Shown here one piece after another: positions 6,573 to 24,823 of a DNA stretch of 64,000 nt. The stretch's first letter is position 1. Each line of letters starts with the position of its first letter. Position numbers and translations under genes: made by a program. The stretch is from Cellvibrionaceae bacterium. GTDB taxonomy: Bacteria; Pseudomonadota; Gammaproteobacteria; Pseudomonadales; JAILXX01. The notes below the pieces were generated by a model. It searched no databases. It was not told where the DNA came from and saw only the letters and a program-made list of their open reading frames with translations. The stretch spans positions 1 through 64,000 of the forward strand of contig JAILXX010000006.1 of NCBI GenBank assembly GCA_045430295.1, written 5' to 3'.

Positions 6573-7970
6573 TTATTCTTGATAAGCCATCGATGCAGAT
6601 TTTTCCACGGGCTCGCCGGCAACACTGTCTGGTAACAGCCACACTTCCACACGGCCATTTTTGGTATTGGAAATTTTCTGACCTACCGCCGCCAATGGCA
6701 TTACCGTTCCCAACCCCAAGGTTTTATTAACCGGTATACCACTTTTAAACAGCGCTGATCTCACAGCGGTGGCTCTTAATTTAGACAGCACATCCGAACG
6801 CTTACCGGTTTGGCTTTTTACTTCATCATTAAAACCCACCAACACTAACTTTTTATGCTGATTTTCAGGCTTTGCCATAAAATTCTGTAAACGGCTAACA
6901 TCCATCAGGGCTTTATTATCTAACCGCGAACTGCCACGATTAAATCGAAAGTTTACCGATAAGCGATCGCCGTTATACATCAACTCACGATAGGCTTGTG
7001 GTGCATTCACAAAATCTTCTTGCTTCACCGCCTGAATATTTTGTGAGATGTAACCCACCTGAGCCACAACTTCCTGACCTTTTTCGCTTTGGCAAAAACT
7101 CACAAATTCACGAATGTCATCCGTAACATTACGTTCCGGGGTATAAAGGTATAAGCGGCGAGTGAGAGGGTAGTCTTCCGTGGCAACAGATAAATGACTT
7201 GGCGCTATGGCCTGGGTTCCTTCATCGGAAACAGCTAACGCTTTCGCATTTCGAATTGAGGCAATGCCAGAGAATCCTATAGCATAGGGATCTCGTGCCA
7301 CAGTATCTGAAAGCTCATCGTTAGATTCGTAGCGCTTAGCGCTATCATCTAGTTGATAAGTCTTTTTCAAGATAAGACTTTTAAATGTATCCCAAGTACC
7401 TGAGTTATTGTCTCGGGCATGGAGACTAATGGCTGCATTAACCCCACCTAATTGCTGCCAATTATTGATTTCACCAGAAAAAATTTGCGCAATCTGAGTA
7501 GTGGTTAAACTGCCAATATTATTGGTTTTGTTAACCAAAATGGCTAAGCCATCAATAGCAACAGTGTGCTCCGACGCTGTGGAACGCATGTAACCAAATC
7601 TTTCCAGTAAGCTAACTTCCTTCTCTTTAATGGGGCGAGACGACATACCAATATCCGCTACACCAGCATCTAAAGAACGGTACCCTGTACTAGAGCCGTG
7701 AGCCGCTACCCAAATAAGCGCATTCGGGCTTTCACCTTGAATGCGAAATTTATTCTCGCCAGTAATATCAATCCGTACACTGGGAATATTTTTACTTTCA
7801 AGATACGCTTTTGCGCAATGGGGAATTAATTTGGCCCCTAAAGTATTGGAACCGTGAATAGTTAAATGAAGAGCTGGCAACGTCGACGCGTTTATTGGTA
7901 ACGCCCAAGACAATAGGCTGCCAAGAATAATACGGGTAGATCGAGTTATAAACAGAGTTAAAGCTGACAT
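6573..7970 (-). CDS. Exported fusion protein: PstS-like phosphate-binding (PBP) domain plus C-terminal OmpA-like peptidoglycan-binding domain
   Basis: Signal peptide, a PstS-like core (SGIASIRNAKALAVS...), and a C-terminal OmpA_C-like segment (NFRFNRGSSRLDNKALMDVSRLQ...LVGFNDEV...GRVEVWLLP). Confidence 0.65.
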   Translation of the reverse strand: MSALTLFITRSTRIILGSLLSWALPINASTLPALHLTIHGSNTLGAKLIPHCAKAYLESKNIPSVRIDITGENKFRIQGESPNALIWVAAHGSSTGYRSLDAGVADIGMSSRPIKEKEVSLLERFGYMRSTASEHTVAIDGLAILVNKTNNIGSLTTTQIAQIFSGEINNWQQLGGVNAAISLHARDNNSGTWDTFKSLILKKTYQLDDSAKRYESNDELSDTVARDPYAIGFSGIASIRNAKALAVSDEGTQAIAPSHLSVATEDYPLTRRLYLYTPERNVTDDIREFVSFCQSEKGQEVVAQVGYISQNIQAVKQEDFVNAPQAYRELMYNGDRLSVNFRFNRGSSRLDNKALMDVSRLQNFMAKPENQHKKLVLVGFNDEVKSQTGKRSDVLSKLRATAVRSALFKSGIPVNKTLGLGTVMPLAAVGQKISNTKNGRVEVWLLPDSVAGEPVEKSASMAYQE

Positions 7971-8040
7971 GCATAAATCCTAATATTGTTAGGATTTATA
8001 GGGTAAAAAACTCATATGACAGTTTTGTTAAACAAACATT

Positions 8041-8078
8041 ACAACGCCAGACGCGTTGAACAAGGCGTCTGGCGTTGT
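8041..8078 (-). terminator. Strong rho-independent terminator ending the minus-strand operon 19784-8088
   Basis: Perfect 12-14 bp stem AACGCCAGACGC / GCGTCTGGCGTT with a 10-nt loop. The minus-strand RNA follows with GUAAUGUUUGUUUAAC. Confidence 0.6.
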
Positions 8079-8087
8079 AATGATACG

Positions 8088-8345
8088 TTAATGTTTCTCT
8101 AACACTTCTGAGAGCGCCTCAATTCTTTCTTGCATAGCTGAAGTTATTTCATCTGCTCGCAAGCGATTTACAATATTATTCAGTACCCGCTTTTCATTAT
8201 CATCAATGACTCCATCACGGGTTGCGATATCAATAATTTCATCTAGCTCCTTCTCATCTAACTTACCATCATTGGCAAAGCAATTGATGGAGTGAAAGGT
8301 CATTTCTAGATAGTCTCTACTTTCTGTCATTGTTATATCCCTCAT
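8088..8345 (-). CDS. Small acidic helical protein, tentatively TerB-like (85 aa)
   Basis: DGKLDEKELDEIIDIATRDGVIDDNEKRVLNNI pattern of paired acidic helices typical of TerB-type domains. Last gene of the operon, 3 bp after the preceding gene. Confidence 0.4.
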   Translation of the reverse strand: MRDITMTESRDYLEMTFHSINCFANDGKLDEKELDEIIDIATRDGVIDDNEKRVLNNIVNRLRADEITSAMQERIEALSEVLEKH

Positions 8346-8348
8346 TCA

Positions 8349-8915
8349 TTATTTAAGAGTTGTATTTAAGTATTGCCGAATATCGCGTTTTTCAACATGC
8401 TGATCCAGCCACTGCTTAAATTCGTCGACTTTTGTAAAATCATCCCCTAACTTTTTACGATAACGGGCTTTCAGTGTTTCTTCTTGTCGTTCTAAGCGAA
8501 TGTTTCGCTGCCAAGCATCGGTAAATATTTTTGGAAGTTTATTATGTATATCTAACTGCTGAAGCAACTTCCACTCACCTTTATCTAGCCAGGCTTCATC
8601 ACAACTTGTGCAAAGCTCTAGACGATGATTAATATCTCTTCCTATTTGAAAGCGACTCATAAATTTAGAACACTTCGGGCACAACTTTGCTTCACTGCTA
8701 TCTTCAGTAATCACATCTTCAGCTATTTCAGCAACACTGTTTTCAGCATGCTGATCAATCCAGTACCGATAATTCATTAGCGATAACAAAGAACCATCAC
8801 ATTTTGGACATACGGCTGCCAGTAGTCCTGGAGATATCTCTTTGGGCTCTAGTTGATAACCTTTGCATTGTGGGCAATCCACATTTACTCCGTTTATTAT
8901 TACTCTGGTAAACAA
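8349..8915 (-). CDS. Double zinc-ribbon protein (YfgJ/TFIIB-ribbon-like), 188 aa
   Basis: Two CxxC...CxxC ribbons (CPQC...CPKC and CPKC...CTSC). Overlaps the upstream gene by 16 bp (translational coupling). Confidence 0.55.
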   Translation of the reverse strand: MFTRVIINGVNVDCPQCKGYQLEPKEISPGLLAAVCPKCDGSLLSLMNYRYWIDQHAENSVAEIAEDVITEDSSEAKLCPKCSKFMSRFQIGRDINHRLELCTSCDEAWLDKGEWKLLQQLDIHNKLPKIFTDAWQRNIRLERQEETLKARYRKKLGDDFTKVDEFKQWLDQHVEKRDIRQYLNTTLK

Positions 8916-9733
8916 CAGCGCTTGTAACGCTTACCACTACCACATGGACAGGGGCCTTTTTTTCTCTGTCGAATGTCATCCTCTATACTGAGAACGTCTT
9001 GCTTGTAAAAATCTGATAGCCGCTGAAATAGTTTTGGATGTTTTTTCTTTAACATTTTTGGGCGCTCAAAAAAGTATTCTGAAGCTACAGCAAAGAATTC
9101 AACTTTACTCGTTCCACCATACGCTCGAATATTGCTTTTTCCCTTATCAATATCTTGTATTTTTCCCTCAATAAATGAAAACCAAGGAATCGCAAAAGCA
9201 TACTCTTTCAATCTTTCAGGAAATCCATCTGTATCACCATCAGCCATATCCACTAAATGGGCAAACTCGTGAATACCCACATTCCGCTTATCGCGAATAT
9301 TTTCAAAACCTGCGTAAAGGTCAGGCTTACTCAAGGCCATTTTTCCAGCCATAGGTCCTGAGCCCACCATACCAGTTATCATAGAATCCGGTTGTTGGCA
9401 TTCAAAATTTTCATTAAAAGCCGCTGGTAATAGATAAACGCCCTTTAAATTCAAGTAGTGCCACTTTGGAAAGCCCCATACCGGAATAATGGCACTGGCA
9501 GCAACTAGTAACCTATCTTCATCAGTAACAGAGAATTGACCAGATTCAATATCTGTCGTTTGTAAAAATAGCAAAGCTCGTTTTTGAAAAATAAGCTTGT
9601 CTTTAAAGGAAAGCTTCCGATAAAACTGTACCTTATCTTCTAAAAATTGACTCCATTCAGATTTCCATAATCCTGACTCTTGCAATTCTGGTTTATAAAA
9701 TATTTCCCAAACGCCCTTTATCCAGCTAAGCAT
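8900..9733 (-). CDS. MtfA/M90-like zinc metallopeptidase with C-terminal SEC-C metal-binding motif
   Basis: HEFAH (HExxH) motif followed by DMADGDTDG. C-terminus GPCPCGSGKRYKRCC is a SEC-C motif. Overlaps the rhomboid gene by 8 bp. Confidence 0.65.
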   Translation of the reverse strand: MLSWIKGVWEIFYKPELQESGLWKSEWSQFLEDKVQFYRKLSFKDKLIFQKRALLFLQTTDIESGQFSVTDEDRLLVAASAIIPVWGFPKWHYLNLKGVYLLPAAFNENFECQQPDSMITGMVGSGPMAGKMALSKPDLYAGFENIRDKRNVGIHEFAHLVDMADGDTDGFPERLKEYAFAIPWFSFIEGKIQDIDKGKSNIRAYGGTSKVEFFAVASEYFFERPKMLKKKHPKLFQRLSDFYKQDVLSIEDDIRQRKKGPCPCGSGKRYKRCCLPE

Positions 9734-10298
9734 GCTTTATTTCCCGAAGCCGTTTTATTTTTGTATGAAGCACAGCATATAAAATACCACTGAGTACGCC
9801 AAAAATATGGTATTCAAAAGAAACACCATTCTTTAGAGGTAACAAGCCGAGTGCCATTCCCCCATAAAATACCAGCACGACAGTTGCCATAAAGAAATGC
9901 TTTAAACTCTTATCAACCCATGCCAAAGCTATCAATAATCCCCAAAGTCCAAATATCCAACCACTAGCTCCGATGTGAATAGCAGGCCTACCAAATAACA
10001 ACACCAAAATACCACTGCTCACAATAATAAAAAGACTGGCATAACAATAGAAACGTATGGGTTTTAATAAACACAATGCACTTAATAAACTTAGTCCCGC
10101 AAGATTATTTATTAGATGAGAATGACTATTGTGTATAAAAGGTGCCGTAAATATGTGATACCAACGCTCGAATGATCTGGGAATAACGCCGAGGTATTCT
10201 ATAGGCCAAATCGCTAAAGTCTTAATGATATGCACTACCACTATGACAGTGATTAAAACCGAGAGTAGTTTTATTCTTCCGGCAAGAAATTTTGTCAT
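9726..10298 (-). CDS. Rhomboid-family intramembrane serine protease
   Basis: TM2 F-x-H-x3-H-L-x2-N motif (FIHNSHSHLINN), TM4 GASGWIFG (GxSG catalytic Ser), TM6 catalytic His (YHIFGVLSG). About 6 TM segments. Confidence 0.75.
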   Translation of the reverse strand: MTKFLAGRIKLLSVLITVIVVVHIIKTLAIWPIEYLGVIPRSFERWYHIFTAPFIHNSHSHLINNLAGLSLLSALCLLKPIRFYCYASLFIIVSSGILVLLFGRPAIHIGASGWIFGLWGLLIALAWVDKSLKHFFMATVVLVFYGGMALGLLPLKNGVSFEYHIFGVLSGILYAVLHTKIKRLREIKHA

Positions 10299-13200
10299 TC
10301 TTTACGACTTGTGATTGGTTTTGTCTCTTCTTTTTTAATATCAGCTTCCAAAATTCTTAACTGCTGAGATATGTCACCCATACGGTCATGAGTACGAAGA
10401 TCAATCTCCAGCTTTTTATCCATGGTTCGTACTAGGGGTGAAATGGTATGTTCAATGGTATCGGCCAATACTCTGAGTATTTTATCGATACCTGGAACAG
10501 GCTCATTCACTACTTGTACATTTGCCTTACTCGCCTCTACTGCTGACGTGAGTTTATCCACGACATAGAGCAAGGCATCATTGCTATCTTCATCTTTACT
10601 GTCTTGGGGTTTATCAGCGCTAGTTTTTACCATCGCGGATAGTTCATCAACACCATTTACTAGATCCATCAATTGCGCAACGATTTTTCCACCGGTGTCT
10701 GCACTGTCACCACCCATAGCTTTATTACGTAAAAAGTCCTTCTTTATTTGCTCCCAGCGCTGGTTTTCTTCCTCTGTGATATTGCCTCTTAATTCCGCTA
10801 ATTTCAGTAAGTTATCCTCGGCCCCGGTTGTCAGTAACTGTGCCTCACCCAAGTAATGATCTTGGATCATTTGCATTAATTCTTTCTCATTCATAACCGC
10901 AGAGATTTTTTCAGTCATCTTGTTCATGTTGCGATAACTACCCTGCAGCTTAAAGGCCGGTTCAGTACGGTATTGATCGTTCTGTGCGGCAGATGCGATA
11001 TATTGCTGATTGATTTTCAATACCACATCTTGGACTACAAACATTTTCTTTAAAATTTCAGTGATTTCATTAATCTCAGCACCACTGTATTGGTGACTAA
11101 GATCTGTGGTTACTGCGTCCCCGCCTTTAGCCATATCAATCAGTTTATAAACATCGGCCATTTCTCTCACCGCCAACGGTGCAAGAACTGGGTTAGAAGT
11201 GAGGGCGTTTTCCACATAACTCAATGCAAACTGCTCATCCATGCCACCCAAGATATCACCCAAATTGTAGATGTCGGCACGGTTTGCCAGCATGTCTGGT
11301 ATTTTGAATGCCTCCCCGGATTCGGTATAAGGGTTACCGGCCATAATCACACAGAACTTCCGACCACGCATATCATAGGTTTTTGTTTTCCCCTTCCACA
11401 CACCTTCAATACGACGCGTTCCATCACACAGAGAAATAAATTTCTGTAAAAACTCCGGATGCGTATGCTGAATATCATCCAGATAGAGCATCACGTTATT
11501 GCCCATTTCTAGAGCGAGGTTCAGCTTTTTCAGCTCCTGGCGTGCAGTCGCGTTCGGTGCTTGTTGTGGATCAAGGGATAGCACATCGTGTCCAAGTGAT
11601 GGACAGTTGATCTTCATAAAGATCAATCCTAATCGATTCGCCACATATTCCATCAAGGTCGTTTTACCATAACCAGGGGGCGAGATCATCATTAACAAGC
11701 CCATCAAATCCGTACGCTTGTTTTCTCCCACCGTCCCCATTTGTTTAGCCAAGTTATCCCCTATCAACGCTAAATAAGATTCATTAATCAATCGGTTCCG
11801 AACAAAAGAACTGAGGGGCCTTGGTTTAAACTCTTCTAGGCGTAAAGCTTCTCTTCGTTCACTGATAACATCCTGACGTAGCTGGTGATAACGATGAAAA
11901 CTCGGTACTACTTCATTGTGGTGCTTCTGTAATCGCAGTAAAAAATCATCCAGCGCAAAGCTCAGTTGGCGATTTTGAATAGTGGGGTGATCTCCCAACA
12001 AACCCTCAACGCTAATTTGCAAATCCACTTCAGTACTGCGACGATCAATACGCTCATCCGCATTGATCAATGCTGCGGCTTCTGGAATATACCGAGCGTA
12101 AATTTCCATGCCTTTCTCTTCTACCATAGCCTGTAACCAAGCAATGGAAAGCTTCCAACGCTCCGCAGGCCAACCCAACAATTTCTCCAAGCTTTGTTGA
12201 TAGCGACGCCAAGTAGCATCATCCATGGAGCGTTTCAACTCTTCCACAAGTTCTTGTGCATATTTACTTCCAATAAATTCAAGGCGCTCTTGGGATAGCT
12301 CGGCTACTAGATACTGAGTGGCTCGCTGGATATCTAAGCTTGAAACCTTTATTGGATGAATATCAATAAAGCGCTGCATCTCTGCTGAAACTTCTTCTTT
12401 TAATAAATTCAGTGCTGTACTGCTAGAAAACACCGCCTGCAATTGCGCTGCGGATTGCGCTCGCTCTTGCCAAGATTCGTAAGAAATATTTCCTTTATCA
12501 GTCGGAAATACACTTTTTATATTGGCCCAGAAAACTTGCGCTAGCGCTCGGCTTTTAGGATCAAAACGCAATAGATCGGCACTTTCCATTACCGGCAGAA
12601 TAGCTTGAATTAACAGGCTAGCATCGTGATCATGAATACCTTTTTCATAACCTTCTTTATAACGGGGAGCCGCAAATTGTTTTACTACATTAGCAATGCC
12701 ATCTTCTTCCAATGAGGCTGTTTTTAGAGTTTGCAACGATAGTGAATTTTGTTGTTTCTCTGCAGCTTCCAGAACTAACGAAGCTAAATATTCTGCTCGA
12801 TAGACTTCATTACTTTCAGATTCCAATGGCATTTCCCAATAGGCTTCCATAGATTGCAAGCTGTCATGGTTAATGCTCTCGTAATAGTTAGTTCCTGTTA
12901 GATGGAAATTCAACTCATGATTCCGGGGAATAATAGTCAAATCCAACTCTTGGTTATTCACAGAGAATCGATGACGCGGACCCAATTTAATAACATTGCC
13001 ACCCTCTTCAAAAATATCGCTTTTATCACGCAGTGAGCGCAATGCTTGCTCTTTAATGGCTTTGAAGCGGGATTCAATATCATCTGCTTTTACAGCACTG
13101 TCTAATTCTCGTAACTTCTCTACCTGCTCTCGGATCTTAATAACCAAAGCATCCGAGGCAAAGTAAGTATTCAAATCATCAGCGTCGGTAAACTTTAAGG

Positions 13201-15583
13201 AGCGTTTTTCAATACTGGATAATATACGCCCTGCAGCATCAGTAACCGACTGCGCCTTACGCTGCCTTTCATCCAGTAACTGCTGTTTATGGCTTTCGAA
13301 GGACTCATAGATTTCCTCACGTTTATCCATAATATCTGCGAGAAACTGATCATACTCACTGAACTGACTTTCCAGCTCTTCAAGTTGCACCAGTAAACGT
13401 GACAGCTGCTCATCACATTTTTCCGGTGTTGTCGCCAAACTCAACGCATTAGTGATGCTCTGAGAGAACAATTTGAATTGTGCTCCAAACTGCGCAATGG
13501 CTTCCTCTGAGCCAAGGTTCTTTTGCTTGTGTTTTGCTGTGGCCTTGCTTTGATTAAGCTTTGAGTAAACTTGAGAAATCGCATCAATAATGCGAGTACG
13601 CACAGTGGCATCATCCACCTTTAACGTACCCATCAGCTCAGACAATAAATCCAACCCCATAGCGGTTGATTCGATAACCTCTACAATGGGCTTCAATTGC
13701 GCAATAGTAGTAGCTTCTCCGACATCTTTATTGATACTGTCAATTTTTAATGTGTACGGTTCTAGCGCTTTATCCTCTGAGAGGAAGGAAATGGTTTCTC
13801 CACTGAGATTTTCTTCTAAGCCTCGTAAGGCTTCGCTTAGCTCTTCAATTCTTGAAACATTGATATAACGATATTCTTTAATCGTAGTTAAATGGCCACG
13901 CTGATGTCTAAGCTTAGCCAAGGCTTCCACATACTCTTCCACCGTCTGCCAACTTTCCGGGCGAATCGACTGAACTAATTGCTCCTGATCTCGCTCGGCT
14001 TCCACCATGGTTTTGGCAGACTGCTGACGAATACTTTCAACTTTCTCAAACTCATCAATAACCAGCTCAGAGGTTTCTGAAATCTCTTTCAGGGTACTGG
14101 CAATGGTTGCAGTTTCTTTATCGTCTAACCAGTAATGGTCATCGAAAATCTTTCTTGCAGCTTTACTTAACTCTTCGTATAAGCGTAACGAAACTGACTG
14201 ATTGGAGATCATACGGTAAATACCGTATAAATCTGAAACACCACGGACTAATTCCGAATTACCAATTCGGCCATAGAAACTTTTACTGGCGGGCGCCTTG
14301 CTAGCAAATTCTGTACTTTCATAAGGGGTTTGCCAGATTTGCATAGGATGAACACGTGTAGGTTCTTGTTCCGCTGAAAAAATAACTAAGCGGCCATTTT
14401 CGGCCAGTGCATAACCATGTCCATAGATAGGATTTTGTAATTCCTTTTCAATCAGGTTATAAGCAAATAAACCAACAATGCCCTCTTCTTGCTCATAAAA
14501 TACATAGAGAACATCTTCACCATTAGGGGAACGAATTACACGCTTGAATTTAAGCCCACCTGTATTTTCATCGAAGGTCTTACATTCACCCGTTTGTAAA
14601 TAATAGCCCCCAGGAAAAATTAATCCGTGGTCTTCCGGTAATTGCACACAAGACTCACCAATAGCATCTACACGGATAACACTCTCTGTGAGAGTGTTAT
14701 AAATAAGATACCGCCAATTTTCTTCTCGATAAGGACGAATCTTTAATAGAATCAGGCTTCCAACAGCAGCGTAACTGATTTGACCGTCGTCTAAAGATTG
14801 TGTTTTATCTTCTACGGGCTCTCGGTAAATGCCCAGTCCATCTTCTGTATTATTCTCAATCTTTACCGTTAAATCACCGCCAACAGTTTCTACAAACACC
14901 GTATCGAGAATATTGATATGGGGATGGCGGCCATGAATACTGTCTTCTCGACTTGTTTCGATCCATTCAAAATCATGCTTAGGTGGGAGTTGGATATCTC
15001 GCTCACCTCGATTATCAATATATTGAATAGTTTGGCCGTTTGCAGAAACCGACCAACGAAACACGCGAATATCATCTAGGCGCTCACCAATTTGAAATCC
15101 AGCAAGCAATTTTCCATTTTTAATGGTGAGCTCTATTAACTTAGTATGCTTGTAATAGCGATACAGCTCTTCAAAATCATTAACGAAACTGGCTTGCTTG
15201 AGAAAACTACCATCCAGTGACACAGGTACCATTTCATGGTGACCATTCTCTTCCTTGATATCGAAGAGGGCAAAAACATCTTCTATCTTGGTTTCTTTCT
15301 TTAACCCAATAAAGACGTTATAGCCAAATAAAAGGTGACTACCTACCTGGACAATATCACGAGCGACGCAATTATTTTCTGTACGCACCCGCACACGGGA
15401 AAGCACGTCCATATCGGAGCTACCAAACTCCTCCAAGCGTGCACGATTTAATCCGTTAATTTTTTCCTGAAGTTTATTGCCCTGCTCTTCCAAACGCTTG
15501 CGAATAATTTCATAAGCGCCGCCTTCAGCCACAGCGTTATCCACTAATTCAGCAGATTCAACACCCTTATTTTTCTCTTCCAT
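10295..15583 (-). CDS. Giant 1762-aa protein with a MoxR/AAA_5-type ATPase module (about residues 1280-1480). The long N-terminal region is of unknown type (possibly beta-rich then coiled-coil), and the C-terminal tail is acidic.
   Basis: Walker A PPGYGKTT (encoded at about 11657-11680), Walker B-like MLYLDDIQ, AAA_5-like NPYTESGEAFKIPDMLANRADIY. Overlaps the rhomboid gene by 4 bp. Confidence 0.8.
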   Translation of the reverse strand: MEEKNKGVESAELVDNAVAEGGAYEIIRKRLEEQGNKLQEKINGLNRARLEEFGSSDMDVLSRVRVRTENNCVARDIVQVGSHLLFGYNVFIGLKKETKIEDVFALFDIKEENGHHEMVPVSLDGSFLKQASFVNDFEELYRYYKHTKLIELTIKNGKLLAGFQIGERLDDIRVFRWSVSANGQTIQYIDNRGERDIQLPPKHDFEWIETSREDSIHGRHPHINILDTVFVETVGGDLTVKIENNTEDGLGIYREPVEDKTQSLDDGQISYAAVGSLILLKIRPYREENWRYLIYNTLTESVIRVDAIGESCVQLPEDHGLIFPGGYYLQTGECKTFDENTGGLKFKRVIRSPNGEDVLYVFYEQEEGIVGLFAYNLIEKELQNPIYGHGYALAENGRLVIFSAEQEPTRVHPMQIWQTPYESTEFASKAPASKSFYGRIGNSELVRGVSDLYGIYRMISNQSVSLRLYEELSKAARKIFDDHYWLDDKETATIASTLKEISETSELVIDEFEKVESIRQQSAKTMVEAERDQEQLVQSIRPESWQTVEEYVEALAKLRHQRGHLTTIKEYRYINVSRIEELSEALRGLEENLSGETISFLSEDKALEPYTLKIDSINKDVGEATTIAQLKPIVEVIESTAMGLDLLSELMGTLKVDDATVRTRIIDAISQVYSKLNQSKATAKHKQKNLGSEEAIAQFGAQFKLFSQSITNALSLATTPEKCDEQLSRLLVQLEELESQFSEYDQFLADIMDKREEIYESFESHKQQLLDERQRKAQSVTDAAGRILSSIEKRSLKFTDADDLNTYFASDALVIKIREQVEKLRELDSAVKADDIESRFKAIKEQALRSLRDKSDIFEEGGNVIKLGPRHRFSVNNQELDLTIIPRNHELNFHLTGTNYYESINHDSLQSMEAYWEMPLESESNEVYRAEYLASLVLEAAEKQQNSLSLQTLKTASLEEDGIANVVKQFAAPRYKEGYEKGIHDHDASLLIQAILPVMESADLLRFDPKSRALAQVFWANIKSVFPTDKGNISYESWQERAQSAAQLQAVFSSSTALNLLKEEVSAEMQRFIDIHPIKVSSLDIQRATQYLVAELSQERLEFIGSKYAQELVEELKRSMDDATWRRYQQSLEKLLGWPAERWKLSIAWLQAMVEEKGMEIYARYIPEAAALINADERIDRRSTEVDLQISVEGLLGDHPTIQNRQLSFALDDFLLRLQKHHNEVVPSFHRYHQLRQDVISERREALRLEEFKPRPLSSFVRNRLINESYLALIGDNLAKQMGTVGENKRTDLMGLLMMISPPGYGKTTLMEYVANRLGLIFMKINCPSLGHDVLSLDPQQAPNATARQELKKLNLALEMGNNVMLYLDDIQHTHPEFLQKFISLCDGTRRIEGVWKGKTKTYDMRGRKFCVIMAGNPYTESGEAFKIPDMLANRADIYNLGDILGGMDEQFALSYVENALTSNPVLAPLAVREMADVYKLIDMAKGGDAVTTDLSHQYSGAEINEITEILKKMFVVQDVVLKINQQYIASAAQNDQYRTEPAFKLQGSYRNMNKMTEKISAVMNEKELMQMIQDHYLGEAQLLTTGAEDNLLKLAELRGNITEEENQRWEQIKKDFLRNKAMGGDSADTGGKIVAQLMDLVNGVDELSAMVKTSADKPQDSKDEDSNDALLYVVDKLTSAVEASKANVQVVNEPVPGIDKILRVLADTIEHTISPLVRTMDKKLEIDLRTHDRMGDISQQLRILEADIKKEETKPITSRKE

Positions 15584-15607
15584 ATCACTCTCTCATCAAT
15601 GTTTGTG

Positions 15608-15628
15608 AAAAGCGGGGCCCTGCCCCGC
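15608..15628 (-). terminator. Intra-operon GC-rich hairpin plus U-tract between the flotillin and giant-ATPase genes (candidate attenuator or partial terminator)
   Basis: GCGGGGC-cct-GCCCCGC perfect stem. On the minus-strand RNA it is followed immediately by UUUU (plus-strand AAAA at 15608-15611). Confidence 0.4.
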
Positions 15629-15644
15629 AATTTCCAACAGCAAC

Positions 15645-17597
15645 TTAGCTGTTGGTTTCTTCACTAACAGAGGTGGTTGTGGCTTTAGGGCCAACAAACT
15701 TCTCGATCAAGGTTGAAATGGTATCGCTTTTATCTGCTAAACCATCCACGGCTTTACCGATGGAGAGAGATTTCGCAAAGTTGTTAAAGAAGTGATCTTC
15801 ACCACCCACAATATCGATATTGGCTTTCTGCAGAGCCACCGCCAATACTTCTGCATTTTCTTTGGCAATGTCTTTACCCGCTTCGATAGAGGCCATGGCT
15901 TCTTTCAATGCAGTTTCCAAGCTCATGCGGAATTCTTCGTGGGCACGGGCATCAGTGCTCATGCTATTCATAGCATCAAACTTCTCTACCAAACCATCTG
16001 CTTCAGCCTTAAATTGTTCGCGAGTCACGTCAGCACCCGCCATACCAATTTCTTTCTCAGACTGAGCTTGCGCAAGACCCTTCGCCGCAATTACATCGGC
16101 TTCTGCTTTACCTGTACCCAAGTGTGCATCAGCTTCTGCATCGCCTTTTGCTTTAATAACATTGGCTTCAGCAACACCTTCTTTTTCCAAGGAGTAAGCT
16201 TTGGCTTCCTGTACTTTCGCATCGGCCAAACCTGGAGCAGCTCTTTCTGCTTGAACACCTTCTGCCAATTTCTTCTTAGAGTCAGCTTCTTTTGCAGCAG
16301 CTTCCAGTTGCGCTTGGGCAAGCGTGGTGATTTCAATAGCTTTATGTTTTGCAGAAAGCTCTTCTGCTTCCGCAGCTTTTACTTGCTTAACCTTTTCTTC
16401 ATCTGCTTGTGCTTCCGCAGCCAATACTTGAGTCTGCTTAGCCCGATCCGCTTCAGAAACTTCACGTACTTCTTTAATACGTTCTTCTTCAATGGCTACC
16501 GTTTTATCAACCGCAACACGCTCGCGAATTACATTTGCAATTTCTTTCTTCTCTACTTCAACGGCTTTTTCAGCTTCAATACGTTGTAATTCAACTTCTC
16601 GCTCACGAGAAACAATTTCTAAATCGCGTGCCCTTGTCACTTTTTCCACTTCAATAGCAACAGCACGTTGGCGATTCTGTTCCGCTACTTCAATTTCTCG
16701 CTTCTGATTTTCAGTTTGTACAGACAAATCCTGCTCAACTTGAATAGTCGTCGCTTCGGCTTTACGGCGCTCTTCTTCCTGAACCTTTTTGGTTTCCGCT
16801 TCTTCTCGTGCTCGAATAGTGGCAATTTCTCGCTCTTGCTTAGCTTCTGCATCAGCTTGTTGGCGTTCAAGCTCTAACATAGCCTCTACGGTTTCAACAT
16901 TTTTCTTCTTAATGGCTAATTCTTCATCACGTTCGAAAATATTGGTTTTAACATTTTGATTAGCCGTTAGTTCAGTAATTTTTCGAATACCTTCTGCATC
17001 GAGAATATTTGAAGGATCCAATGAAGCTTTAGGCGTCTGCTCCAAATAATCAATAGCAACGTCTTCCAACACATAGCCGTTTAAATCATCGCCAATAACC
17101 TGAACAATCTTGTCTCTAAATTCCTGACGGTTTTCAAACAATTTCACAAATTCGATTTGTTTACCGACAGTCTTCAGAGCTTCTGAAAATTTTGCATTAA
17201 ATAGCTGATTTACTGCATCTTTATCCGAGGCCCGCCCTGCACCAATGGATTTTGCTACTTTTAATACATCATCAGCAGTCTCATTAACTCGTAAATAGAA
17301 AGCAACTGTGATATCTGCCCGCATGTTATCTGCACAAATCAAACCATCTTTACCACGGCGATCTACCTCCAAAGTAATCAATGAAATTTTCATTAATTCC
17401 CTTTTATAGATAATCGGATACACCAAAGCACCGGTGAAATGTACTTTCGGACGAGCTGTCATATCATTGACAATCAAAGCTGTGCCTTGCTCTACTTTCA
17501 CATAGAAAGCTTTAAACAAAGCCGCAAAGCCCATCAATATAATAAAGGTAATGCCAATTCCAGTTGCGATAGGCATTAATACAGATAAATCAGCCAT
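15645..17597 (-). CDS. Flotillin-like SPFH/band-7 protein (YqiK-like), 650 aa
   Basis: N-terminal TM helix, SPFH core, and a long E/A/K/Q-rich coiled-coil region typical of bacterial flotillins. Confidence 0.8.
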   Translation of the reverse strand: MADLSVLMPIATGIGITFIILMGFAALFKAFYVKVEQGTALIVNDMTARPKVHFTGALVYPIIYKRELMKISLITLEVDRRGKDGLICADNMRADITVAFYLRVNETADDVLKVAKSIGAGRASDKDAVNQLFNAKFSEALKTVGKQIEFVKLFENRQEFRDKIVQVIGDDLNGYVLEDVAIDYLEQTPKASLDPSNILDAEGIRKITELTANQNVKTNIFERDEELAIKKKNVETVEAMLELERQQADAEAKQEREIATIRAREEAETKKVQEEERRKAEATTIQVEQDLSVQTENQKREIEVAEQNRQRAVAIEVEKVTRARDLEIVSREREVELQRIEAEKAVEVEKKEIANVIRERVAVDKTVAIEEERIKEVREVSEADRAKQTQVLAAEAQADEEKVKQVKAAEAEELSAKHKAIEITTLAQAQLEAAAKEADSKKKLAEGVQAERAAPGLADAKVQEAKAYSLEKEGVAEANVIKAKGDAEADAHLGTGKAEADVIAAKGLAQAQSEKEIGMAGADVTREQFKAEADGLVEKFDAMNSMSTDARAHEEFRMSLETALKEAMASIEAGKDIAKENAEVLAVALQKANIDIVGGEDHFFNNFAKSLSIGKAVDGLADKSDTISTLIEKFVGPKATTTSVSEETNS

Positions 17598-17668
17598 AAT
17601 GGTTACTCCGTTTCCGTTTTTTAACGTTATAAAGGCTATTAATATTAATCAGGGAATTTCTGATTCTT

Positions 17669-18361
17669 TTATTTTCCTGCGAATTCATTTTCTGAGATAA
17701 CGCGATAGGCATTCTCCGCTTCTAGTCGCTCAAATAACACTACACGATCACCTTTGCTAAAAGTCTCTTGGTCTGTCGATCTCACTTTCAAAATAAGTCC
17801 AGCACCACCATCTTCTAATATGGCTTCGCCAAAGTTGTTATCAACCTTACTGGTTTTCACAATAGCTGTTTGACCCAGAATATGTTTTATCGTTTGCTGC
17901 TGTGCTTTTTGAAATAAAGGCCTTAGTGGCTTGATTAAAAACGCCGTAATCATCACTGCGATATACAACACACCCACTAATACGGGAATACCTGCTATAA
18001 ACTTCAATAAATTCCCGGGTATAAAGCCAAAGAAGAAGTGAACGATGTAATAGCAGATAAACCAACCAAACAAAGAAACAAACGAAATAATGACAGTAAC
18101 AGGCACACCCTGAAGACCAAAGCGCAACATTAAACCAGCTAGTACATTGGCATTGCTTAAACCGGAATCTGGATTTACATCTAAAGCGCCATCAGCATCG
18201 GGGATATCGAAATCTAATGCATCAATTTCCACAAACCCTAAAACTGCCACCAACCAGTACAAAACTGTGATTGCTAAAAAGAAGGTAAAGAAGGCTGTAG
18301 GAAATGATGAAATATTTTGGTAAAACGGGTTCATATTTTCCGATAACAATATTGCAAACAT
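17669..18361 (-). CDS. YqiJ/NfeD-like membrane protein (flotillin operon partner)
   Basis: Multi-TM N-terminal half plus a C-terminal short NfeD-type beta-barrel-like segment (GEAILEDGGAGLILKVRS...KGDRVVL). Lies immediately upstream of the flotillin gene, as yqiJ-yqiK in E. coli. Confidence 0.6.
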   Translation of the reverse strand: MFAILLSENMNPFYQNISSFPTAFFTFFLAITVLYWLVAVLGFVEIDALDFDIPDADGALDVNPDSGLSNANVLAGLMLRFGLQGVPVTVIISFVSLFGWFICYYIVHFFFGFIPGNLLKFIAGIPVLVGVLYIAVMITAFLIKPLRPLFQKAQQQTIKHILGQTAIVKTSKVDNNFGEAILEDGGAGLILKVRSTDQETFSKGDRVVLFERLEAENAYRVISENEFAGK

Positions 18362-18393
18362 TTCCTACTCCTTTTCTTTTTTTATGATCAGAC

Positions 18394-19080
18394 TTATTTC
18401 TTATTCTTCAGTCTTTCGAGAATATCATCAGCGCTTTTACCCTGTGGGGCAATACCTGCTTTCTCCAGTTTTTCCTGTAAAGAATCCCCATAACTTTCTT
18501 CCGCTAACTCATTAGCCGCTGCCATTTGTGCTGACTTTAACGACTGCTTCTCTTTAATACGCTCCAAAGAATCCATAGCAGTACGCATTTTTGAATTAGA
18601 TCCACTATGCCTTTCCGCGACTGCGGCTTGTGCTCGCTGAACACTTTCAGTGGCTTTTACAGTATCAATCTGCTGCTTGATTCGCTTTAAGTTACTTTCT
18701 GTTTGCTTGATCGCTGTACGTAACTGTTCTGCACTAGCCTCGTAACCTTTACCTGCCTCTTCTTCTTGAGCTAGCTGGTTTTCCAGGTTTGCAATTTTTT
18801 GTGCTACTTCACGGGCTAAATCTTCATCGCCTTTTTCTAGTGCTTTAATTGCATAACCTTCATTTTCTGAAATATTTTTTTTCAAATTTTTAGATTTTTC
18901 TTGGGACAGCTTTTGTCGCGCAATGATTTCTGCCAATGCATCTTTCGATTGCTTTAGTTCTTCACCAGCTTCTCGCACTTCTTGATCCAAGATTCTAAGT
19001 GCTTGGCTATCCACAATAGCTTCGCCTGCTTCATTTACACCACCCTTGAGGGCGGTCATCATTTTTGCCCAAATGTTCAT
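18394..19080 (-). CDS. PspA/IM30 (Vipp1, ESCRT-III superfamily) protein
   Basis: MNIWAKMMTALKGGVNEAGEAIVDSQALRILDQEVREA is a typical PspA N-terminus. All-helical coiled-coil, 228 aa. Strong SD AAGGAG. Confidence 0.8.
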   Translation of the reverse strand: MNIWAKMMTALKGGVNEAGEAIVDSQALRILDQEVREAGEELKQSKDALAEIIARQKLSQEKSKNLKKNISENEGYAIKALEKGDEDLAREVAQKIANLENQLAQEEEAGKGYEASAEQLRTAIKQTESNLKRIKQQIDTVKATESVQRAQAAVAERHSGSNSKMRTAMDSLERIKEKQSLKSAQMAAANELAEESYGDSLQEKLEKAGIAPQGKSADDILERLKNKK

Positions 19081-19115
19081 TGTGTAATCTCCTAATTAAA
19101 TCTATCTCTGTTTAT

Positions 19116-19748
19116 CTAACTGGCTATCTCTACTGGAAATTCTAAAAATTCTGCATAAGCTTCCGTAGCTTGAATTACATTATTTGCTAGCACTTCAATT
19201 TCAAATATCACATTCGACAATTTTGATGTTGAGCTCAACGCACCAAACATATGGTAATAATCTTCATCTTTACCCGTTTTATCCAAGCTAATTGTGGAAA
19301 GCGGGAAGTACTTATGTGTACGTAACACAGTTTCATTAAACAGTGTCACATCTGTCACTTCAGTCACCGACCAAAGTACAGACTCAGCAATAATCTGCTC
19401 TCCTGACACCGTAAGAAAAATCGGTAGCTCACCATAGTTATTCATTACTATGTGTAGCGACGATTCGACACCATCAATCAACTCAATAGTCACTGATCCA
19501 CTGGTAACTAAATCTGTTTCCTGCAATGCCTTCAATAAACTCGTTGTTGTCCAATGATTTGCCGTATCAACCATAAGGCTTTCTCCTTCTAACATATTTC
19601 CTGAAATAGGTAGCCGCAGTGACTTTTCCACCTCGGCCAGACGCCTGGCATTTTCGGGCAGTATCCATACTTCTTTCTTTACAAGTCCCTGTTCCCGCAG
19701 CCGTCGCCGGTATTCCCGTTGGTAGTGTGCTGATGATTTTTTGTTCAT
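19116..19748 (-). CDS. Hypothetical protein, first gene of the operon: basic N-terminus plus possible YjfI/DUF2170-like domain
   Basis: The ORF track gives a TTG start at 19784. The ATG at 19748 is preferred because all three operator-like palindromes then lie outside the CDS. The arrangement mirrors E. coli yjfI-yjfJ (YjfJ is the PspA paralog). Confidence 0.5.
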   Translation of the reverse strand: MNKKSSAHYQREYRRRLREQGLVKKEVWILPENARRLAEVEKSLRLPISGNMLEGESLMVDTANHWTTTSLLKALQETDLVTSGSVTIELIDGVESSLHIVMNNYGELPIFLTVSGEQIIAESVLWSVTEVTDVTLFNETVLRTHKYFPLSTISLDKTGKDEDYYHMFGALSSTSKLSNVIFEIEVLANNVIQATEAYAEFLEFPVEIAS

Positions 19749-19754
19749 GGGTCC

Positions 19755-19813
19755 ACTATAGTTAATCACATGTAATGATGTCAATAAATTACATGTAATG
19801 ATTTTACATGTAA
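19755..19813 (-). promoter_or_regulatory. Candidate sigma70 promoter (TTGACA-N18-TATAGT on the minus strand) with three copies of the 10-bp palindrome TTACATGTAA
   Basis: -10 rc at 19755-19760 and -35 rc at 19779-19784. Palindromes at 19789-19798 and 19804-19813 (perfect) and 19766-19775 (TCACATGTAA, inside the spacer). If correct, the mRNA would have a very short leader or none. Confidence 0.35.
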
Positions 19814-20089
19814 CTACCCTTGCTTATTCTCTTCAGCATTTGTGCAGCTATATAAATGAACAAATCAGGGACTGTTTACTCAAGAAAAACCAGGTGTGAG
19901 AAGGTATAACTAGTGAAAATAAAGACAATCCATCACTCCTTGATATTTATTATTGTTATAGATGACCACCTGAAATCGCTACAGGCGGTCTATATTACTC
20001 TCTATTTAACTCTTTATGCCAGATGCTTAAATCAAAACCAGTAGCCTATTTCAGCATTAAGAGCACTGCATAATGTAAGTACTTACTAC

Positions 20090-21107: not shown

Positions 21108-23525
<2,418 letters not shown>

Positions 23526-23701
23526 CTAACCCCGTCAATTGCAGGCGGCACAAGGGTTTGCGCCATACCTTTTCTTATCTGTACTGTTATTAATCCTAAA
23601 GGCTACTGAAACTTTTCCCTCAACCCTTAGGATTACTAACAATCTTTCTCTTTATCCTGACCTTCAACGGCCTTTCACACTGAGTCTCAACCTTAGCCGC
23701 T

Positions 23702-24823
23702 CTATTCAGTGCGGTGAAACACTTCACTAACCGCTCCATGTTCCACGTGAAACACCTTGCACTCTCCTTCTGGCCAATGATCTTCCAAGCTATCCCGTGC
23801 AACGCCAGTTACAAATAACTGCACCCCACTGTGATAGAGAAGATCAGCTACCTTCTGCCTATGATCTCCATCTAGCTCTGATGGTAGATCATCGATCAAA
23901 ACCAAAGGCTTACGCTCAGCTAAAGCAGACACCGTCTCAATCTGGGCAAGCTTCAGAGCAAACACCAACATCTTGGTTTGCCCTCGAGACAAAATTTCCT
24001 GTACTGCCCGCCCCTCTAGCTTTAACCGTAAGTCTGCGCGGTGTGGGCCTTTACGGGTATAACCTATCTCTTGGTCTTTATACTGATCTTCTTTAAGTAC
24101 TTCAGCAAAGGGCTGATCTTTAGCCCAACCCTTAAAGTAACCCAATTCCACAGACCCAAAATCAATCAGCTGTTCACAAACTTTATCGAAATGCGGCCGG
24201 AAAGCTGCCAGGTATTCCTGTCGGACCTGATCTATCTGTTCAGCCAGTGTAACCAGTTCTGTATCCCAAACTTCCAGCTGAGACACTGCGGACAAGCCCC
24301 CCATTTTACCACGCTTAAGCACGGTATTGCGCTGTTTCAGGCATCTTTGATACCGAATCCACAGGCTGTGGAACTCATGTTTCACGTGAAACACACCCCA
24401 ATCCATGAAACTTCGACGTAGCTTTGGTGAGCCTTCTAGCAACTGAAAGCTATGGGGTTCCAGCAGCTGTAAAGGAATATAGCGAGCAAGCTCCCCTACG
24501 GTAGCGAGGTTTTCTCCCCCTGCCTTCGCGGTAACTTCACCTAATTTCGTACGCTGTACACCGATTCGTATTGGAGAACTATTAGATGACGCAAAGCCAG
24601 AGAAAACACCCGAAACTACAGCATCGGATAATTCATAATTGATGACTTTTTGAAAGCTGGTGGTACGGAAGGATCGCCCCAAAGAAAGGGTATGAATGGC
24701 CTCTAAGACTGACGTTTTCCCTGCCCCGTTTTCCCCATAAAACAAATTAGTACGCAAAGCAGGAGTTAGCTTGGAAGGGCCAAGATTTCGAAAGCCAGAG
24801 AATGAAAGTTCGTGCAGAGGCAT
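23702..24823 (-). CDS. recF: DNA replication and repair protein RecF
   Basis: Walker A GENGAGKTS, with the SMC-like signature and Walker B LIDDLPSELD. Confidence 0.93.
   Translation of the reverse strand: MPLHELSFSGFRNLGPSKLTPALRTNLFYGENGAGKTSVLEAIHTLSLGRSFRTTSFQKVINYELSDAVVSGVFSGFASSNSSPIRIGVQRTKLGEVTAKAGGENLATVGELARYIPLQLLEPHSFQLLEGSPKLRRSFMDWGVFHVKHEFHSLWIRYQRCLKQRNTVLKRGKMGGLSAVSQLEVWDTELVTLAEQIDQVRQEYLAAFRPHFDKVCEQLIDFGSVELGYFKGWAKDQPFAEVLKEDQYKDQEIGYTRKGPHRADLRLKLEGRAVQEILSRGQTKMLVFALKLAQIETVSALAERKPLVLIDDLPSELDGDHRQKVADLLYHSGVQLFVTGVARDSLEDHWPEGECKVFHVEHGAVSEVFHRTE
23738..23753. promoter_or_regulatory. parS-like centromere site (TGTTCCACGTGAAACA), one mismatch
   Basis: 15/16 match to the consensus TGTTTCACGTGAAACA. 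Lies in the 3' end of recF. Confidence 0.55.
24378..24393. promoter_or_regulatory. Perfect parS site TGTTTCACGTGAAACA inside recF
   Basis: Exact 16-bp palindromic ParB-binding consensus. Confidence 0.7.

Follow-up and report, generated by a model that had tools for sequence, protein, structure and literature searches.

We analysed the first 64,000 nucleotides (nt) of contig JAILXX010000006.1 from a Cellvibrionaceae bacterium, referred to below as the window, which carry an operon with a giant ATPase gene. All operon genes described here lie on the minus strand, packed without intergenic space, in the order BacA, PspA, YqiJ-like protein, flotillin-like protein, giant ATPase, rhomboid, M90, Zn-ribbon protein and p85. 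Our subject is the pair of protease genes behind the giant ATPase gene, which encode a rhomboid intramembrane protease and an M90 zinc peptidase with a SEC-C tail. We found that this pair is an optional addition to the 3′ end of a known type of operon. The features of the two genes, with amino acids abbreviated as aa and transmembrane as TM, are as follows.

9726..10298, minus strand: rhomboid-family intramembrane serine protease, 190 aa, six-TM core only (PF01694)
codon 9965-9963, minus strand: rhomboid catalytic Ser112 in GASG (G110-A-S112-G, TM4), from the alignment
codon 9809-9807, minus strand: rhomboid catalytic His164 (TM6), from the alignment
within 9726..10298, minus strand: rhomboid TM2 residues H56/H61/N65 (HxxxN motif, H61...N65), from the alignment
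8900..9733, minus strand: cytoplasmic Peptidase_M90 gluzincin, 277 aa, with a C-terminal SEC-C tail (PF06167, PF02810)
codons 9271-9257, minus strand: M90 zinc motif HEFAH (H155-E156-F-A-H159), from the alignment
within 8900..9733, minus strand: M90 third-ligand motif E212-F-F-A (EXXA), from the alignment
8912..8950, minus strand: SEC-C or SecA-type metal-binding motif C262-P-C264-GSGKRYKR-C273-C274, a CxCx8CC variant (PF02810)

An earlier note on this DNA had called the two proteins a rhomboid and an HExxH peptidase, and both calls were right, with Pfam scores far above the cut-offs. The rhomboid matched PF01694 at 58.1 bits (E = 1.5e-15; Pfam cut-off 22.6). When 30 homologues of 32-51% identity were aligned, S112, H164, H56, H61, N65, R104 and H108 were invariant, R104 and H108 being specific to this family. 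The Ser/His dyad, on which the earlier note had made its rhomboid call depend, is thus present throughout, and with the dyad and the TM2 motif complete the enzyme is predicted to be catalytically competent. The AlphaFold2 model (predicted local distance difference test, pLDDT, 93.5; predicted TM-score, pTM, 0.89) contained six TM helices, and the top 30 PDB matches returned by Foldseek were all GlpG (best E = 7e-5; TM-score 0.60-0.71). A PDB sequence search with the rhomboid gave only noise, and its relatives were found by the fold search instead. Positive charges at each end suggest that both termini are cytoplasmic, as in GlpG. The protein is like rhombosortases in being a small (~190 aa), six-TM gammaproteobacterial rhomboid, but membership of that family (TIGR03902) was rejected at 30.1 bits against an equivalog cut-off of 84, and a GlyGly-CTERM link was not seen.

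The second protein matched Peptidase_M90 (PF06167) at 195 bits (E = 2.1e-57; cut-off 26.2), with profile positions 15-243 of 243 covered. H155, E156 and H159 of HEFxH and the E212-F-F-A motif were invariant in 26 M90 orthologues, and a PDB sequence comparison aligned E212 with the ligand Glu of MtfA. Gluzincin sites are defined by HEXXH together with a downstream Glu in EXXA (PMC13482132); with HEFAH and EFFA intact, the peptidase also looks catalytically competent. Its best sequence relatives in the PDB were MtfA entries (3dl1/3khi at E = 1.6e-12, and also 9srw). Foldseek with the M90 model (pLDDT 64) again ranked 3dl1/3khi first (E = 1.7e-6, probability 1.0), followed by anthrax lethal factor, so that the M90 fold on which the earlier call had been staked was found in the predicted structure. 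The TM scan found no hydrophobic segment in the protein. The description 'MtfA-like' held for the family and the fold but not for orthology: the MtfA equivalog model (NF011939, DgsA anti-repressor MtfA) reached 51.1 bits, in the C-terminal half only, against a cut-off of 400. Like MtfA of E. coli and Klebsiella (3dl1, 3khi, 9srw), the window protein belongs to the M90 family and has the HEXXH plus EXXA site; unlike MtfA, to which it is ~24% identical, it has a SEC-C tail and another genomic context. It belongs to a separate M90+SEC-C subfamily that occurs mostly in unrelated genomic contexts. ROK is the family of Mlc, the partner of MtfA, and a ROK gene is absent from the operon.

The SEC-C call of the earlier note proved right as well. 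PF02810 scored 26.1 bits (cut-off 20.4) on the motif CPCGSGKRYKRCC at the C-terminus, and C262, C264, S266, K268, Y270, C273 and C274, including all four Cys, were invariant in the same 26 orthologues. In the PDB sequence search the tail matched C-terminal peptides of SecA (1sx0) and of YchJ (9l6b). Its core is almost identical to SecA's CPCGSGKKYKQCH, the window copy being attached to an M90 peptidase. Metal-binding domains of the SecA type (CxCx8C[HC]) bind ribosomes as well as SecB, phospholipid co-purification depends on them, and they are also found on methionine aminopeptidases (bioRxiv 10.1101/613315). As in the SecA C-terminal domain, YecA, YchJ and some methionine aminopeptidases (10.1101/613315), the window tail combines CxCx8CC with conserved Ser, Lys and Tyr. 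By this likeness, the Cys4 tail probably places the peptidase at the inner-membrane surface, the ribosome or SecB.

The junctions of the two genes were then compared with those of related loci. Overlaps of 4 bp between the giant and rhomboid genes and of 8 bp between the rhomboid and M90 genes had been claimed, and the open reading frames (ORFs) 10295-15583, 9726-10298 and 8900-9733 confirmed them. At the first junction, an ATGA, the last bases of the rhomboid ATG lie within the TGA stop of the 1762-aa ORF; at the second the shared sequence is ATGCTTAG. Short gene overlaps are commonplace within operons, and overlap by itself points to operon membership and probable translational coupling, nothing unusual. 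Elsewhere the giant-to-rhomboid spacing was -4 nt in L005, L010, L018 and L036, from -11 to +11 nt in five further loci and 310 nt in Xenorhabdus, while nine of the 12 orthologous pairs showed a 4-bp overlap between the rhomboid stop and the M90 start. The tight junctions are thus conserved across loci. Both protease genes belong to the giant-ATPase operon, and the translational coupling to the giant ATPase that the earlier note asserted is probable. The two proteins were each 100% identical to entries from a Cellvibrionaceae metagenome-assembled genome (MAG); an exact-sequence look-up of the window's M90 protein gave no record.

The remaining genes and features of the operon and its 3′ flank are listed here.

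19116..19784, minus strand: BacA / DUF2170 (YjfI, CesT/Tir-like; NF050185, PF09938)
18394..19080, minus strand: PspA/IM30 family protein of the YjfJ/BacB type (PF04012, 164 bits)
17669..18361, minus strand: YqiJ/YuaF-like multi-TM protein, 230 aa (conserved position, TM scan)
15645..17597, minus strand: flotillin-like SPFH scaffold, 650 aa, with one N-terminal TM helix at residues ~10-28 (orthologues, TM scan)
10295..15583, minus strand: giant 1762-aa ATPase with N-terminal DUF3686, DUF7902 and a C-terminal AAA+ domain (Walker A SPPGYGKT; Pfam)
8349..8882, minus strand: double Zn-ribbon protein, ~177-188 aa (PF13453, 29 bits)
8088..8345, minus strand: p85, an 85-aa acidic protein (orthologues)
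8058-8042, minus strand: weak terminator-like hairpin 3′ of p85 (hairpin search)
6573-7970, minus strand: PBP_like_2 plus OmpA protein with a signal-peptide-like N-terminus (Pfam)

Judged by sequence, the window operon is homologous to P. aeruginosa bacABCDEF, and its core is the known Bac-type system. BacA scored 316 bits against the NCBIfam model NF050185 for the 'biofilm formation regulator BacA' (cut-off 300), and the same five core families follow in the same order as in the Bac or class-1 operon (PMC10948618; PMC11237479), in relatives of which PLD is optional. This operon class, in which a CesT/Tir(DUF2170)-PspA pair is joined by a band-7/flotillin protein, a YqiJ/YuaF-type TM protein, a novel AAA+ ATPase and sometimes PLD, was described by Ravi et al. 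2024 (PMC11237479). The window differs from the Bac system in that it lacks PLD and instead has the rhomboid, M90-SEC-C, Zn-ribbon and 85-aa proteins after the ATPase. From the Pseudomonas loci L012 and L014, BacE and BacF of P. aeruginosa are probably the giant ATPase and PLD. The giant ATPase family comprises 424 clusters at 50% identity (E ≤ 1e-30). The flotillin-like and YqiJ-like proteins of the window gave zero Pfam-A matches at E ≤ 0.01, while a flotillin orthologue in L168 matched PF01145 Band_7; the two are divergent family members that domain-based annotation misses. The true start of bacA is probably the ATG at 19748. For the Zn-ribbon gene the start is probably the GTG at 8882, with GGAG at 8891-8888, rather than the TTG at 8915, and therefore the gene probably does not overlap that of M90.

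To place the protease genes within this operon family, two sets of loci were surveyed. With a profile of the giant ATPase, 80 loci were drawn from species-representative genomes, out of more than 585 in GTDB species genomes, spanning Gamma-, Beta- and Zetaproteobacteria, Myxococcota, Actinomycetota and one Clostridia MAG. All ORFs at these loci were scanned by hidden Markov models (HMMs) and phmmer, and the counts refer to the 70 loci with at least 3 kb downstream. The YqiJ-flotillin-giant triad was nearly universal, both among 79 genome loci and in this set of 70 (YqiJ-like in 67/70 and flotillin-like in 68/70 loci), and BacA-PspA was present in 38 of the 70. The genes found around this core were distributed as follows.

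PLD, after the ATPase: 16/70 loci
Rhomboid of the window's subfamily, after the ATPase: 10/70 loci
M90, after the ATPase: 0/70 loci
85-aa protein (p85) orthologue: 10/70 giant-ATPase loci
Zn-ribbon protein orthologue: 9/70 giant-ATPase loci, and also behind M90 in 10 loci

The rhomboid and M90 genes are thus accessory (shell) genes and not part of the operon core. M90 was not found in 79 giant-ATPase loci with an HMM made from close orthologues, which very divergent M90s could escape, and it was absent from Pfam scans of ten unassigned downstream ORFs. The rhomboid-positive loci were all gammaproteobacterial (Pseudomonas, Aquipseudomonas, Limnobaculum, Xenorhabdus, Oleiphilaceae and Cellvibrio/Cellvibrionaceae); the gene is also present in Entomomonas (L013), whose shorter contig is not among the 70 loci. 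In nine loci other than the window (Pseudomonas, Aquipseudomonas, Entomomonas, Limnobaculum, Oleiphilaceae, Cellvibrionaceae) the rhomboid lies -11 to +11 nt after the giant ATPase, and in one locus it is upstream and divergently oriented. Further occupants of the slot behind the giant ATPase were, by Pfam, MscS/MscK-like channels, TelA, a DUF808/TerC-like protein, an alpha/beta hydrolase and Peptidase_M50B. One explanation of these data would be that there is no specific link, housekeeping proteases having been captured at a variable operon 3′ end in some gammaproteobacteria and riding its transcript. The patchy spread of the two genes and the high variability of the slot, PLD included, are in keeping with this, as are homologous rhomboids that stand alone in Providencia and another genome. 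We nevertheless consider it quite improbable, since the same rhomboid subfamily keeps the same position, with the stop/start overlap conserved over several orders, and since all other slot occupants share a membrane-stress theme, which argues for selection and not random capture.

Several observations were made on individual loci of this set. The non-protease slot genes are at L006:15680-16843, L044:15479-18967, L045, L032:16035-17132, L064, L011:15914-16855 and L048:15636-16532, and an unassigned family of ~250 aa occupies the slot in Xanthomonadales (L024, L032, L034, L040). In Xenorhabdus szentirmaii (L002:3427-8369) the giant ATPase is split into 912 and 710 aa, possibly by a frameshift or as a pseudogene, and an unassigned 315-aa ORF lies between it and the rhomboid. 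In Providencia rustigianii (L003:9073-10564) the homologous rhomboid stands alone directly after a split ROK-family gene, ~9 kb from gyrB; its position next to a ROK gene may be a coincidence.

The second survey started from the peptidase. A profile of M90-SEC-C orthologues retrieved 80 metagenome loci, of which ~20 were close (M90 of at least 62% identity) and 59 more distant (45-60%). The giant ATPase lay immediately upstream of M90 in 12 of the ~20 close loci, arranged as Giant-Rhom-M90 in eight, as Giant-M90-ZnR without a rhomboid in three and as Giant-M90-Rhom in one; a further close locus was a 5′-truncated Rhom-M90-ZnR. M90 was adjacent to the rhomboid in 13 of the ~20, and either gene order occurred. 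Three stand-alone rhomboid-M90 pairs were found outside the operon among housekeeping genes, two of them after GST and aldolase genes (L088, L095) and one, reversed, after leuA and a GNAT gene (L103). M90 was seen without rhomboid or giant ATPase in three close loci (L085-L087), and the remaining close loci were too short to judge. An independent full context, BacA-PspA-YqiJ-Flot-Giant-Rhom-M90-ZnR-p98-PLD-p89, was present in L001. Among the distant loci M90-SEC-C followed the operon in L127 (YqiJ-Flot-Giant-M90) and L116 (YqiJ-Flot-...-M90). M90-SEC-C is thus widespread as a family, and one clade within it, accompanied in most cases by the rhomboid, has been recruited to the end of Bac-type operons. 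That M90-SEC-C genes are located elsewhere for the most part would again suit capture without a specific link, but M90-SEC-C of two divergence levels is found behind the operon, and the rhomboid-M90 pair stays together outside it in both orders. The functional link between the two proteases, which the earlier note had proposed, is supported by this conserved adjacency, the stand-alone pairs included.

A third line of evidence came from M50B, an intramembrane metalloprotease family unrelated to rhomboids. In L037, a Ca. Thiodiazotropha MAG, a Peptidase_M50B-like gene with a HELSH motif (15237-15881) overlaps the giant ATPase stop by 11 nt, and a second Ca. Thiodiazotropha genome has a 57%-identical homologue after the giant ATPase (L168:9001-9642). 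Homologues of ~50% identity form the last gene (9001-9669) of a second DUF2170-PspA operon type in L166, L167, L169 and L170, where a spermine-synthase-like protein, DUF2170, PspA, two small proteins, an RCK K+ channel, a 300-aa protein and DUF350 precede M50B. One homologue lay in an unrelated context (L165), so that 6 of the 7 M50B contexts examined were PspA operons. DUF2170-PspA operons therefore repeatedly end in an intramembrane protease from one or other of two unrelated families. That M50B takes the place of the rhomboid in one and the same slot suggests selection for intramembrane proteolysis as a function of these PspA systems, and such a substitution by an unrelated protease also speaks against capture without a link.

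The recurrence of M50B could be read in another way, as regulatory proteolysis, in which the rhomboid or M50B cuts a membrane-anchored regulator, or M90, like MtfA, titrates or inactivates a regulator such as BacA, and the operon or the PspA machine is switched on or off instead of damaged proteins being cleared. M50 is the classic family of regulated intramembrane proteolysis, and the two operon types that end in an intramembrane protease share only DUF2170 and PspA. In addition, the sole established role of MtfA is the binding of the repressor Mlc, the physiological substrate of the peptidase being not known (PMC13482132), and loss of BacA, a proposed negative regulator, raises all Bac proteins in P. 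aeruginosa (PMC10948618). Against a regulatory role, the operon encodes no membrane-anchored regulator, BacA and PspA having no TM segment; M90 falls far below the MtfA equivalog cut-off (51 versus 400 bits); BacA is not near M90 in most M90 loci; and the invariant catalytic residues of M90 argue for real peptidase activity over pure titration. On balance we regard regulatory proteolysis as unlikely.

The reading that we prefer, to which we give a probability of roughly 45%, is that with this pair a membrane-maintenance machine made of PspA, flotillin and the AAA+ ATPase gains the ability to cleave and clear membrane proteins; particular substrates are rated much lower. The basis of this functional reading is gene neighbourhoods; that the parts form a complex, in what order they act and on which substrates are likewise inferences. 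With the two genes forming an optional module at the 3′ end of a Bac-type operon for membrane stress, the rhomboid, made together with the ATPase, would cut a TM segment, either in membrane proteins that are damaged or orphaned or in the system's own anchors, the flotillin-like or YqiJ-like protein. The AAA+ ATPase, the PspA polymer or both would handle the membrane-embedded cleavage product, and M90, tethered by its SEC-C tail, would trim or degrade material arriving at the cytoplasmic face. The earlier note had envisaged a proteolytic relay that might cleave PspA, flotillin or the giant protein; both the relay and any of these substrates are putative. In the TM scan the flotillin-like and YqiJ-like proteins were the only operon-core proteins with TM helices (one and several, respectively), and the scan showed no hydrophobic segment in BacA, PspA, p85, the Zn-ribbon protein or the giant ATPase. 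For want of TM segments, PspA and the ATPase are unlikely to be cut by the rhomboid, although they could in principle be substrates of M90. The flotillin-like protein, given its TM helix, is a candidate rhomboid substrate or platform.

Closest to the proposed relay is a model of scaffold self-processing or disassembly, in which the rhomboid clips the flotillin-like anchor or a YqiJ-like TM helix and M90 trims the new N-terminus. The flotillin-like and YqiJ-like proteins would be the sole possible substrates with TM helices in the operon, and the flotillin anchor, with its short length and its Pro and Gly residues (MPIATGIG), has features typical of rhomboid substrates. In archaeal stomatin operons the partner NfeD/STOPP protease cleaves stomatin; the YqiJ-type proteins we take to be NfeD-like, without the protease domain. 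MtfA also reportedly has aminopeptidase activity. Set against these points, flotillin N-termini were essentially identical with or without a rhomboid (for example, the window versus L009, L011 and L029), two rhomboid-M90 pairs had no flotillin gene within 10 kb (L088, L103), and M50B is the last gene of a PspA operon type in which flotillin is missing. Self-processing thus appears to have little probability.

Some of the same data also weigh against the clearance function that we prefer. With the rhomboid in 10/70 and M90 in 0/70 giant-ATPase loci, the system lives without either protease in most lineages. Most rhomboid-positive loci have PLD rather than M90, and therefore the relay is not general. 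On the peptidase side, the three close loci without rhomboid or giant ATPase were mentioned above, and about 57 of the 59 distant M90-SEC-C genes were in unrelated, non-conserved contexts. When the N-terminal TM helices of flotillins were compared they were alike in rhomboid-positive and rhomboid-negative loci, and therefore no co-variation marks flotillin as a substrate. The rhomboid site faces the periplasmic leaflet and M90 is cytoplasmic, so that a hand-over would need an extra dislocation step. Finally, the M90 structure model is of only moderate confidence, and its fold match accordingly carries moderate weight.

We also considered a broader form of the clearance function, in which intramembrane proteolysis, supplied interchangeably by a dedicated rhomboid subfamily or by M50B, is a recurrent and hitherto overlooked arm of DUF2170-PspA systems and the window's flotillin-rhomboid-ATPase-M90 hub, its M90 targeted by SEC-C, extracts and degrades membrane proteins at lesions repaired by PspA. 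This seems to us rather doubtful, but if true the hub would be analogous to YqgP-FtsH and to the mitochondrial SLP2-PARL-YME1L hub, with its parts encoded by split genes. The B. subtilis rhomboid YqgP works with FtsH, an AAA+/M41 HExxH protease, in membrane-protein quality control (PMC7231995). By gene composition the window has the same elements, a rhomboid, an AAA+ ATPase and an HExxH zinc peptidase, whereas its ATPase (DUF3686-AAA+) and peptidase (M90) are separate, unrelated proteins and its rhomboid is without the extra domains of YqgP. PARL, YME1L and the SPFH protein SLP2 are described as forming a mitochondrial hub (Wai et al. 2016, as cited in PMC7966987). The window resembles this account in uniting an SPFH scaffold, a rhomboid, an AAA+ protein and a zinc peptidase in one system, a likeness of composition only, the parts not being orthologous. 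An anti-phage defence system with variable effectors (PLD, proteases) was considered as well and rejected: searches against PADLOC-DB gave only SEC-C-tail and coiled-coil noise (E ≥ 3e-4).

The core operon and each protease family are known, and the protease add-on to the operon is apparently undescribed. The main texts of PMC10948618 and PMC11237479 make no mention of rhomboid, MtfA, SEC-C or any protease or peptidase, and intramembrane proteolysis in PspA systems goes unmentioned in the latter, the main comparative study of phage-shock-protein systems. Neither an association of rhomboid and M90-SEC-C with Bac-type operons nor one of M50B with DUF2170-PspA operons was found in the searchable literature, outside which most subscription journals lie. 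The substrates and roles of most bacterial rhomboids, and the physiological substrate of any M90 peptidase, are not known. Repeated coupling to a flotillin/PspA/AAA+ operon narrows the search for rhomboid partners and substrates to a few co-encoded proteins, and likewise for the paired M90-SEC-C, and gives an orphan rhomboid subfamily and an M90 peptidase a concrete, testable cellular context. The P. aeruginosa Bac system, which is linked to biofilm and virulence, offers a relative that can be cultured and manipulated genetically, and culturable carriers include Aquipseudomonas alcaligenes and Xenorhabdus.

At the 5′ end of the operon, the palindrome TTACATGTAA / TTACATGTGA occurs three times at window positions 19766-19813, with spacings of 15 and 23 bp, and forms a candidate operator. 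The palindrome had 5 strand-hits versus 0.37 expected, and its copies lie upstream of or overlap the probable bacA start. A sigma-54 -24/-12 element (TGGCAC-N5-TTGC with at most 2 mismatches) was not found upstream of bacA on the minus strand; such a promoter has been reported from P. aeruginosa alone and probably does not define the Bac-type operon. Downstream, the PBP-OmpA gene follows the operon by 117 nt on the same strand and was not seen at related loci. OmpA and PBP domains have been reported in other PspA/Snf7-AAA+ neighbourhoods (Ravi et al. 2024, PMC11237479).

Within window positions 8001-20000 the operon has a G+C content of 0.39-0.42, compared with 0.44-0.49 in its flanks, and it directly adjoins gyrB and recF (21108-24823), a region normally near the replication origin. 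The low G+C content and this position may reflect horizontal acquisition of the operon. The two small genes at its end recur as accessory genes of giant-ATPase operons: the Zn-ribbon gene is upstream of the ATPase in some Betaproteobacteria, and p85 is encoded between the flotillin-like protein and the giant ATPase in some Pseudomonas and in a Lysobacter MAG. The p85 protein has a repeated D-G-x-(L/I)-D-x-x-E motif that, judged by eye, recalls TerB-like domains.

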